From NCBI RefSeq assembly GCF_009931435.1, contig NZ_CP043414.1: DNA of 64,000 bases. One strand, given 5' to 3'. Origin of the DNA: Escherichia coli (GTDB taxonomy: Bacteria; Pseudomonadota; Gammaproteobacteria; Enterobacterales; Enterobacteriaceae). The notes under the pieces are model-generated. The model was not told the origin of the DNA and made no database searches. It was given only the letters and a program-made list of their open reading frames with translations. Below are positions 4,080 to 7,325 of this stretch, one piece after another. Made by a program: the position numbers and the translations under genes. The stretch's first letter is position 1; every line of letters starts with the position of its first letter.

Positions 4080-5618
4080 ATGACCAACAATCCCCCTTCA
4101 GCACAGATTAAGCCCGGCGAGTATGGCTTCCCCCTCAAGTTAAAAGCCCGCTATGACAACTTTATTGGCGGCGAATGGGTCGCGCCCGCCGACGGCGAGT
4201 ATTACCAGAACCTGACGCCGGTGACCGGGCAGCTACTGTGCGAAGTGGCGTCTTCGGGTAAACGAGATATCGATCTGGCGCTGGATGCTGCGCATAAAGT
4301 GAAAGATAAATGGGCGCATACTTCGGTGCAGGATCGCGCGGCGATTCTGTTTAAGATTGCCGATCGAATGGAGCAGAACCTCGAACTTTTAGCGACGGCT
4401 GAAACCTGGGATAACGGCAAACCCATTCGCGAAACCAGTGCTGCTGATGTGCCGCTGGCGATTGACCATTTTCGCTATTTTGCCTCGTGTATTCGGGCGC
4501 AGGAAGGTGGGATCAGTGAAGTTGATAGCGAAACTGTGGCTTATCACTTCCACGAACCGTTAGGCGTGGTGGGGCAGATTATCCCGTGGAACTTCCCGCT
4601 GCTGATGGCGAGCTGGAAAATGGCACCCGCGCTGGCGGCGGGCAACTGCGTGGTGCTGAAACCCGCACGACTCACTCCGCTTTCCGTTCTGCTGCTAATG
4701 GAAATTGTCGGTGATTTACTGCCGCCGGGCGTGGTGAACGTGGTCAACGGTGCGGGCGGAGAAATTGGCGAATATCTGGCGACCTCGAAACGCATCGCCA
4801 AAGTGGCGTTTACCGGCTCAACGGAAGTGGGCCAACAAATTATGCAATACGCTACGCAAAACATTATTCCGGTGACGCTGGAGCTGGGCGGCAAATCGCC
4901 AAATATCTTCTTTGCTGATGTGATGGATGAAGAAGATGCCTTTTTCGATAAAGCGCTGGAAGGCTTTGCACTGTTTGCTTTTAACCAGGGCGAAGTTTGC
5001 ACCTGTCCAAGTCGTGCCTTAGTTCAGGAGTCTATCTACGAACGCTTTATGGAGCGCGCCATCCGCCGTGTCGAAAGCATTCGCAGCGGTAACCCGCTCG
5101 ATAGCGTGACGCAAATGGGGGCGCAGGTTTCTCACGGGCAATTGGAAACCATCCTTAACTACATTGATATTGGTAAAAAAGAGGGCGCAGACGTGCTCAC
5201 CGGCGGGCGGCGCAAGCTGCTGGAAGGCGAACTGAAAGACGGCTACTACCTCGAACCGACGATTCTGTTTGGTCAGAATAATATGCGCGTGTTCCAGGAA
5301 GAAATTTTTGGTCCGGTGCTGGCGGTAACCACCTTCAAAACGATGGAAGAAGCGCTGGAGCTGGCGAACGACACGCAATATGGCCTGGGCGCGGGTGTCT
5401 GGAGCCGCAACGGTAATCTGGCCTATAAGATGGGGCGCGGTATTCAGGCAGGGCGCGTGTGGACCAACTGTTATCACGCTTACCCGGCACATGCGGCGTT
5501 TGGTGGCTACAAACAATCAGGCATTGGCCGCGAAACCCACAAAATGATGCTTGAGCATTACCAGCAAACCAAGTGCCTGCTGGTGAGCTACTCGGATAAA
5601 CCGTTGGGGCTGTTCTGA
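4080..5618 (+). CDS. aldB: NADP-dependent aldehyde dehydrogenase
   Basis: 512-aa product from ATG at 4080 (the track ORF extends upstream in frame); preceded by AAGGAG; ALDH catalytic motifs ([16 protein letters not shown]). Confidence 0.9.
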
Positions 5619-5627
5619 TGTAAGAAG

Positions 5628-5664
5628 CTGGTCGCATCGGGTATTCATTGCCTGATGCGACGCT
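5628..5664. repeat. REP-like palindromic element / aldB terminator hairpin
   Basis: gtcgcatc...gatgcgac inverted repeat containing the REP consensus-like GCCTGATGCGACGC. Confidence 0.5.
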
Positions 5665-5895
5665 TTCGCGTTTTACCAATTCAAATGTCTACGTCTTGAA
5701 TGACTGAATATTGATTGAACTTAATTACGAGTCTCCTCGCATCTTTTCAACAAGTTACTGCACACCGTTATTCTTCTTCCGAACGGCATTCCTGAGTCAA
5801 CTTTATCCCCCTGACGGCCCATATAAATCGCGCTATCGTGATTGTTATTGCTAAATGTGTGTGTGTCGTGTGTATAATCATGGAAGGGCAGGGAT

Positions 5896-6081
5896 GTGAA
5901 AAGTGCAGACGTGATCGCCATCCTGAAGCAGCATGGCTGGGAACATATTCGAACCCGTGGTAGTCATCATCAGTTCCGCCACCCTGTTCATCCGGGTCTG
6001 GTGACGGTTCCGCACCCTAAAAAAGATATTAAGCCCGGTACGCTGGCGCAAATTGGGCGTCAGGCTGGTTTAACATTTTAA
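5896..6081 (+). CDS. HicA-family mRNA interferase toxin (predicted)
   Basis: 61-aa ORF with GTG start; motif RTRGSHHQFRHP and C-terminal PHPKKDIKPGTLAQIGRQAGL resemble the HicA/YcfA family; 16 nt upstream of a HicB-like ORF; TATAAT at 5873-5878. Confidence 0.6.
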   Translation: MKSADVIAILKQHGWEHIRTRGSHHQFRHPVHPGLVTVPHPKKDIKPGTLAQIGRQAGLTF

Positions 6082-6097
6082 AATTTCAGGAGGCAAT

Positions 6098-6508
6098 ATG
6101 TTTTATCCCGCCTATATCCACAGTGATCCTGACGGCAGCGCCAGCGGTTTTTTCCCTGATGTTCCAGGCTGTTATTTTGCTGGTGATACGCTGGACAACG
6201 CTTTCCAGGATGCGCGAAGTGCACTGGTCGCGCACTTCGAAACCTTATGCGAGATGAATGAAGAGTTGCCGCTTCCAGGCTCTGTGGAAACACATCTGGT
6301 CCAGCGTGCGCAGGACTTTATTGGCGGGCAATGGTTGCTGGTGGATATCAATATGAATCAGTTCGAAGGTCGGGCTGAACGTATCAATATTACGATGCCG
6401 AAAAGATTACTGAACAAGATTGATACCTACGTGCGCAATAACCCAGACTACGCCAACAGAAGTGCGTTTCTGGCGGAAGCTGCCCGGCGTGTATTGCCGG
6501 GCGTTTAA
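6098..6508 (+). CDS. HicB-family antitoxin with C-terminal ribbon-helix-helix domain (predicted)
   Basis: 136-aa ORF; N-terminal HicB-like fold signature (YPAYIHSDPDGSASGFFPDVPGCYFAGDT...ELPLP); C-terminal RHH-like segment INITMPKRLLNKIDTYV...NRSAFLAEAARRVL; SD AGGAGG 6 nt upstream of ATG. Confidence 0.6.
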   Translation: MFYPAYIHSDPDGSASGFFPDVPGCYFAGDTLDNAFQDARSALVAHFETLCEMNEELPLPGSVETHLVQRAQDFIGGQWLLVDINMNQFEGRAERINITMPKRLLNKIDTYVRNNPDYANRSAFLAEAARRVLPGV

Positions 6509-6840
6509 TCTCGCGTTTCGATGGTGAGCGGGCGGACCAGGCTGTACAGCCACAGACCAAAACAAGCGATGGTGCCAATCACCACGGTGAGGAACACACT
6601 GACTGACAGGCCTGCAAGCAATCCCGCAGGCAGGGCCAGCAGGCCGTGGATCACGGTGTCGTTCCATCTCACCTGATCGTAGCCAAACATGCCTAAAACG
6701 CCGCAAACCAGACCGTAAATCACCATTGGTGTTCCGAGGCCAATCAGCAATAAACGGTAGATAATTGAAGGTTTAATACGCTTTATCTGTACTGTGGATG
6801 TTTTACTGGGGTTATTCATTAGTTTGGTCAATAGTTCCAT
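6505..6840 (-). CDS. Hypothetical small inner-membrane protein (two or three predicted TM helices)
   Basis: 111-aa product from ATG at 6840 inside a 127-aa ORF; hydrophobic stretches IIYRLLLIGLGTPMVIYGLVCGVLGMF and LLALPAGLLAGLSVSVFLTVVIGTIACFGLWLY; convergent with the hicB-like gene and overlapping its 3' end by 4 nt. Confidence 0.4.
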   Translation of the reverse strand: MELLTKLMNNPSKTSTVQIKRIKPSIIYRLLLIGLGTPMVIYGLVCGVLGMFGYDQVRWNDTVIHGLLALPAGLLAGLSVSVFLTVVIGTIACFGLWLYSLVRPLTIETRD

Positions 6841-7001
6841 TATTTCAATATGATAAACCTCGACCTGTTGAAAAGCCAGGTAGCACACTTCAGAAAGTAT
6901 ATAAAAAACAATATGTCGTTATATAAATAAGGAAATTGCACTGCATCATGGCATTTCATAATATGCGTTAATTGTTCTTTTTTATATTCTCTGAGGGAAA
7001 T

Positions 7002-7325
7002 ATGTTCCTGGACTATTTTGCACTGGGAGTGCTTATTTTTGTATTTCTGGTGATATTCTATGGGATTATTATTTTACATGATATTCCCTACCTGATTGCT
7101 AAAAAACGTAATCATCCTCATGCCGACGCCATTCATGTTGCTGGTTGGGTGAGTCTTTTTACGCTGCATGTTATCTGGCCATTTTTGTGGATTTGGGCCA
7201 CGCTTTACCGCCCGGAGCGGGGATGGGGAATGCAAAACCATGACTCCTCCGTTGTGCAACTACAACAGCGTATTGCCGGGCTGGAGAAACAGCTCGCCGA
7301 CATCAAATCCTCTTCTGCCGAGTAA
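7002..7325 (+). CDS. yiaW: Small inner-membrane protein (DUF3302 family)
   Basis: 107-aa product from ATG at 7002 with GAGGGAAA SD; membrane helices; immediately followed by yiaV. Confidence 0.85.

Follow-up and report, generated by a model that had tools for sequence, protein, structure and literature searches.

A predicted HicAB toxin-antitoxin pair with a ribbon-helix-helix antitoxin between aldB and yiaW in a minority of Escherichia coli genomes

In those Escherichia coli chromosomes that carry two short open reading frames between aldB and yiaW, the question arises whether these frames constitute a working toxin-antitoxin operon and, if so, of what type and of what descent. A preliminary description of one such region had proposed an intact HicA/HicB-like pair and had taken it for a distinct, uncharacterised Hic paralogue at a second chromosomal site. 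We have analysed this pair within its surroundings, i.e. a stretch of 64,000 nucleotides from contig NZ_CP043414.1 that is referred to below as the window. As judged from the sequence and its relatives, the pair is very probably a functional, chromosomally inherited Class-4 type II toxin-antitoxin operon. It is real and it is ordinary: of a known kind, annotated with identical RefSeq proteins, and with close structural homologues of solved structure.

The layout of the locus is given in Table 1. The two frames (5896-6081 and 6098-6508), the 16-nt gap between them and the toxin-first order are as originally described. The placement between aldB and yiaW also holds, except that a convergent frame of 104 codons on the minus strand had been overlooked, the stop codon of which overlaps that of hicB by 4 nt. 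Its product is a predicted membrane protein that has no family match in Pfam, NCBIfam, PHROG or PADLOC. A GC-rich hairpin lies within the last codons of hicB; its T-run, TTTAATCT, was rated poor by the terminator scan, and the element is a candidate for a weak terminator-like site shared by hicB and the convergent frame. A search of Rfam at a permissive threshold gave no match within 5500-7100.

Table 1. Features of the hicAB locus (positions in the window, except where a locus handle is given).
Feature	Position	Strand	Remarks
aldB	4080-5618		upstream of hicAB
aldB terminator hairpin	5631-5661		inverted-repeat search
Conserved upstream block	5830-5842	+	GCGCTATCGTGAT, consensus GCGCTAnnGTGAT; 7-genus promoter alignment
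GT-rich direct repeat	5859-5878	+	TGTGTGT 5860-5866, TGTGTAT 5869-5875, period 9
TATAAT -10 box	5873-5878	+	read from sequence
Weak Shine-Dalgarno-like sequence	5883-5894	+	GAAGGGCAGGGA, ahead of the hicA GTG; GAAGGAnAGGGAT in orthologues
hicA	5896-6081	+	61-aa ORF, GTG start; predicted HicA-family toxin
Spacer hicA-hicB	6082-6097		16 nt
Shine-Dalgarno sequence of hicB	6088-6093	+	AGGAGG, strong, 4 nt before the ATG
hicB	6098-6508	+	136-aa ORF, ATG start; predicted antitoxin
GC-rich hairpin	6481-6503	+	last hicB codons; terminator scan, 9-pair stem with 7 GC pairs
Convergent 104-aa ORF	6505-6819; longest ORF to 6888	-	between hicB and yiaW; WP_001064341.1
yiaW	7002-7325		downstream of hicAB
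HSDR_N-domain gene (other genomes)	L010 3233-4312; L004 5412-6488; L013 4420-5499	-	adjoins hicAB

Both proteins gave full-length matches when the proposed assignment to HicA and HicB was checked against profile models. The 61-residue protein, which contains RTRGSHHQFRHP and VPHPKKDIKPGTLAQIGRQAGL, matches Pfam PF07927 (HicA_toxin) with an E-value of 2.1e-23 (query 4-59, model 2-58 of 58) and PHROG 353 ('toxin') with an E-value of 8.7e-23; among the solved structures it is closest to the HicA of B. pseudomallei (4c26/6g26, E ~1e-16). Its AF2 model (pLDDT 91.5) has helices at residues 3-12 and 47-57 and strands at 16-21, 24-28 and 35-39, i.e. a predicted dsRBD-like alpha-beta-beta-beta-alpha fold, and Foldseek superposes it on the HicA of 6g26 with an rmsd of 1.0 A. 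Membership of the HicA family is thus borne out by profile, sequence and fold. The residues Gly22-Ser23-His24 align with a G-S-A sequence in 4c26/6g26, where Ala occupies the position of His24. Gly22 and His24 are needed for the toxicity of the B. pseudomallei toxin (BpsHicA), and the catalytic histidine is His24 in BpsHicA and His28 in YpHicA3 (PMC11594946). The GSHH motif is invariant in all seven sequences compared (the HicA of the window and its orthologues), and so is the whole HicA core across genera, Gly22 and His24 included.

The 136-residue protein matches Pfam PF15919 (HicB_lk_antitox; E 9.1e-36, query 3-129, model 1-123 of 123), PHROG 497 ('HicB-like'; E 2.7e-33) and the HicB of B. 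pseudomallei (6g1n; E 2.8e-25, residues 2-133), whereas the K-12 HicB (6hpb) aligns over residues 1-66 only. The same division is seen at the level of structure: the AF2 model (pLDDT 88, and above 90 in the N-terminal beta-beta-beta-alpha-(alpha)-beta core) has full-length Foldseek matches to 6g26, 4p7d and 6g1n, and only the N-terminal domain, ~88 columns, matches the K-12 protein. This domain compares with the crystal structures 4p78_A and 6g1c at TM-scores of 0.78-0.87, normalised to the target. Residues ~1-90 are accordingly predicted by the model to form a partial RNase-H-like, HicA-binding domain, and residues ~94-135 are predicted to form a ribbon-helix-helix (RHH) DNA-binding domain rather than a helix-turn-helix (HTH). 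In the C-terminal part the strand motif R95-I-N-x-T-x-P101 precedes helices at 102-114 and 121-135, and there is an invariant motif, RINxTxP...RS.FLA.AA; the ribbon strand is unformed in the monomer model, and a strand of this kind pairs only in the dimer.

The contrast that had been drawn with the HTH-type HicB of K-12 therefore stands. As for the 'distinct paralogue', the pair does occupy another chromosomal site and does carry an RHH rather than an HTH domain, but the RHH type was already known and is represented by several crystal structures (PMC10865869, PMC11594946), the HicBs of B. pseudomallei and Y. pestis being of this type (PMC11594946). A toxin-first order with a short spacer characterises the Class 3/4 hicAB modules, and in Class 4 of Gerdes the hicB that follows hicA encodes a C-terminal RHH domain (PMC10865869). 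On the features read from its sequence, the pair in the window is a classical Class 4 hicAB.

The HicA and HicB of the window are identical to the RefSeq proteins WP_000833473.1 and WP_000499744.1, respectively, which are named as HicA and HicB family members, and PGAP assigns the labels HicA family toxin and HicB family antitoxin in all of the matches listed. NCBIfam has no match for either protein, so that PGAP must have drawn its names from some other source; in view of the matches in Pfam and the PDB, this null result is not counted against family membership. The accession WP_000833473.1 occurs once in the literature searched, as the E. coli HicA used for a BLAST query in a 2016 paper. According to a 2024 review of HicAB, the K-12 system is the sole experimentally validated one in E. 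coli, and our literature searches did not find an experimental study of the E. coli copy of the type present in the window. The word 'uncharacterised' is hence apt with respect to experiments, though not with respect to annotation.

When 5,426 complete E. coli genomes were searched with the locus by megablast, 505 (~9%) proved to contain the hicAB core, always as a single chromosomal copy and with at least 98.8% nucleotide identity (99% or more in 501 of the 505); ST648 is represented among these carriers. Homology searches yield hundreds of conserved homologues. Outside E. coli, HicB homologues with 73-80% amino acid identity are common in Enterobacter, Pseudescherichia, Trabulsiella, Yokenella, Lelliottia and Metakosakonia, and those of Serratia, Yersinia and Salmonella show 54-69%. 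The pair resides no more than a few kb from selB/aldB in Enterobacter, P. vulneris, Trabulsiella and Metakosakonia, and adjoins putA in Serratia. In all orthologous loci hicA directly precedes hicB in the same orientation, and both frames are full-length in the orthologues of five other genera. For both genes pN is 0.14-0.19 (0.23-0.32 in the comparison with Serratia) and pS, which is saturated, is 0.69-0.85, so that non-synonymous divergence is some five times smaller than the synonymous one.

A recent origin from a mobile element was considered and rejected: the plasmid and phage homologues are less than 60% identical, and hicAB has the same GC content as the window (50.7% against 50.8%). 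In the plasmid set, the matches that reach at least 99% are two 4.9-Mb E. coli chromosomes (NZ_CP141089.1 and NZ_CP134663.1) that are filed in PLSDB and hence produce spurious 'plasmid' matches at 99-100% identity. The flanks of hicAB contain no mobile-element genes. The constraint among orthologues, the window-like GC content and the distance of the plasmid and phage homologues together argue for an old resident instead of a recent insertion. As K-12 and most other E. coli retain just the tail of hicB, the pair is ancestral and was subsequently lost; comparative sequence data thus picture hicAB as an old chromosomal resident under purifying selection that has disappeared from most E. coli.

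What is left of the locus elsewhere supports this picture in some detail. In K-12 MG1655 (L002, NZ_CP174267.1, 3908-4087; corresponding to 6425-6508 of the window) a REP element precedes what remains of hicB, its last 27 codons, which with a 4-codon deletion read TYVRNNPDYANRSTFLG----RVLSGV* and lie unannotated between aldB and yiaW. This remnant is the best match in ~3,800 of the 5,426 E. coli genomes. The minus-strand neighbour has been shortened in K-12 as well, by a 171-bp in-frame deletion between short direct repeats that leaves 47 of the 104 codons (the 47-aa WP_001066080.1). In a cryptic Escherichia clade (L009/L010, 4791-4981) hicA is frameshifted at about codon 38 and hicB is intact. 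That the locus is lost in ~90% of E. coli and that hicA is frameshifted in the cryptic clade implies that hicAB is dispensable and prone to decay.

Other changes have been observed in the same neighbourhood. In E. coli C4 (L015, NZ_CP010121.1, 1788-3925) a gene for a GH127 glycoside hydrolase directly follows hicAB, and the 104-aa frame and yiaW-yiaV-yiaU-yiaT are missing, an arrangement that marks the interval between aldB and the GH127 gene as a rearrangement hot spot. An IS1A copy interrupts yiaW in E. coli HS-02 (L003, 3574-4677). Cryptic Escherichia carry a gene for a 431-aa Fic-domain protein between yiaY and aldB (L009/L010, 248-1546), which is absent at that position from the window and from K-12.

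The upstream region of hicA was compared among seven orthologous loci and proved mostly unalignable, with the exception of two blocks. The TATAAT sequence that had been noted ahead of the GTG start is indeed present. By itself it is not significant, there being 12 copies on both strands of the window, but it recurs with unchanged spacing to the GTG in six of the seven orthologous loci of other genera. It is overlapped by the GT-rich direct repeat, the best-conserved intergenic stretch in the alignment, where it reads TGTGTAT-nn-TGTGTAT and runs into TATAAT. The other block, in which the columns C5831, G5832, T5834, A5835, G5838, T5839 and T5842 are invariant, is located ~30 nt ahead of the -10 box. 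In both Y. pestis and B. pseudomallei the RHH-type HicB binds operator DNA that overlaps the -10 box, and the known operators of this type are palindromes overlapping that box (PMC11594946). We consider the repeat a candidate for the autoregulated promoter with a proximal operator, and the upstream block a candidate distal operator of HicB. The operator assignment is provisional because neither a palindrome nor a consensus -35 was found: an inverted-repeat search of 5619-6110 returned nothing save the aldB hairpin, and a sigma-70 consensus scan at the TATAAT gave no -35 element at 16-18 nt, with TTGCTA at 19 nt. CRP and CRP-S half-sites were also looked for in the upstream block; they matched poorly by eye and were rejected.

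The translation signals of the two genes differ. The combination of GTG and a weak Shine-Dalgarno sequence in hicA versus ATG and AGGAGG in hicB should keep the antitoxin in excess; the GTG start is kept in six orthologues. From the end of the -10 box to the GTG there are 17 nt, which with a standard spacing between -10 and +1 would place the transcript start near 5885, within the Shine-Dalgarno sequence of hicA. In the K-12 system a HicB-repressed promoter yields a transcript that is truncated at the ribosome-binding site of hicA and directs the synthesis of HicB only (PMC7167474, PMC10865869), and by analogy the same logic may apply here.

Taken together, the operon would work as follows. 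Free HicA, with its dsRBD-like fold and His24 acting together with Gly22, would be toxic by cleaving mRNA in a ribosome-independent manner, and the partial RNase-H-like domain of HicB would neutralise it by binding and blocking. The RHH domain of HicB would dimerise, bind the promoter via the conserved blocks and repress the operon, and an excess of HicA would loosen HicB from the DNA, as it does in the HicAB modules of B. pseudomallei and K-12. The GTG start and the weak Shine-Dalgarno sequence would keep the toxin scarce, and a transcript that probably starts within the ribosome-binding site of hicA would favour the synthesis of HicB.

The same mechanism could serve anti-phage abortive infection, ancestrally in concert with an adjacent nuclease-like gene, a role that we regard as unlikely albeit worth weighing. 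Gerdes proposed in 2024 that HicA modules act in defence (PMC10865869), and HicB-like genes are found in P2-like and HP1/HP2 phages. Moreover, a gene for a ~359-aa protein with an HSDR_N domain (PF04313/PF13588) adjoins hicAB in Enterobacter, Trabulsiella and cryptic Escherichia, and its product is 78% identical between cryptic Escherichia and Enterobacter, the same divergence as that of HicB. However, the orientation of this gene relative to hicAB varies (upstream and divergent in cryptic Escherichia, downstream and convergent in Enterobacter and Trabulsiella), and a tblastn search of the window with its product detected neither the gene nor a remnant. PADLOC has no model that matches HicA or HicB, and the GC content and flanks described above, equal to the surrounding chromosome and devoid of mobile-element genes, respectively, also plead against it.

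A more far-reaching combination of these elements seems improbable: hicAB could be an ancient resident of the selB-aldB region that was co-inherited with the HSDR_N gene as a single defence unit and is decaying stepwise, with a -10 box that, 17 nt ahead of the GTG, makes a HicB-only transcript. If this were true, the successive stages of decay would be represented by the loss of the nuclease (window), the frameshift in hicA (cryptic clades) and the 27 remaining codons of hicB (K-12), and the 'antitoxin-only autoregulated promoter' design known from K-12 would recur in the unrelated RHH class.

We likewise find little to recommend the view that the pair merely looks intact and is an inactive or decaying relic, in which HicA is non-toxic or untranslated and HicB acts as a small RHH transcription factor. 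Such a state would agree with the absence of the pair from most E. coli and the K-12 remnant, with the broken hicA next to an intact hicB in cryptic Escherichia, with the frameshifted HicB variants P0020 and P0068 in the protein database, and with the start codon, Shine-Dalgarno sequence and -10 position of hicA, which predict a very low translation of the toxin. It is at odds with the invariance of Gly22, His24 and the HicA core across genera and with the low ratio of non-synonymous to synonymous divergence, and neither gene of the window is truncated in comparison with the Pfam models or the orthologues. That these are chance reading frames without gene function, for which nothing more than their small size could be adduced, is refuted by the profile matches (E 1e-23 and 1e-35), the hundreds of conserved homologues and the confident fold matches.

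Reading the pair as a functional Class-4 operon introduces no new mechanism and no new family. Its contribution is a second HicAB, of the RHH type, carried by ~9% of E. coli genomes, along with a few smaller items: the remnant of hicB in K-12, the conservation of the GTG start and of the promoter blocks, and the different states in which the locus occurs. The pair also accounts for the unannotated hicB 3' fragment that accompanies a REP element behind aldB in K-12, and the natural states of presence, absence and remnant could provide an isogenic test bed for the roles of chromosomal toxin-antitoxin pairs.

Among the known systems, the RefSeq pair WP_000833473.1/WP_000499744.1 is the same gene pair at the same locus and shows no difference. 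The HicAB of B. pseudomallei (4C26, 6G26, 6G1N) has the same toxin-first operon; its HicA is 52-54% identical to that of the window, with superposable folds (TM 0.89), and its HicB is ~35% identical over the full length, including the C-terminal RHH domain. Host and locus differ, and BpsHicB has as its operator one palindrome that overlaps the -10 box (PMC11594946), whereas in the locus studied here conservation at that position is confined to GT-rich direct repeats. The HicB3 of Y. pestis (4P78, 4P7D) is of the RHH type like the HicB of the window (E 1.6e-21, residues 1-132), and the two operators of that system, one of which overlaps the -10 box (PMC11594946), resemble the two conserved blocks; HicA3, in contrast, is much more distant (E 1e-4), and hicA3 and hicB3 lie 174 bp apart instead of 16 nt. 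The HicAB of K-12 (yncN/ydcQ; 6HPB, 6HPC) belongs to the same family and shares the toxin-first order and the N-terminal fold of HicB (88 columns), but it occupies a different chromosomal site and its HicA is not detected by phmmer from the HicA of the window at E<=0.01. Its promoter gives rise to a transcript that begins at the ribosome-binding site of hicA (PMC7167474), a design to which that of the pair between aldB and yiaW is possibly alike.
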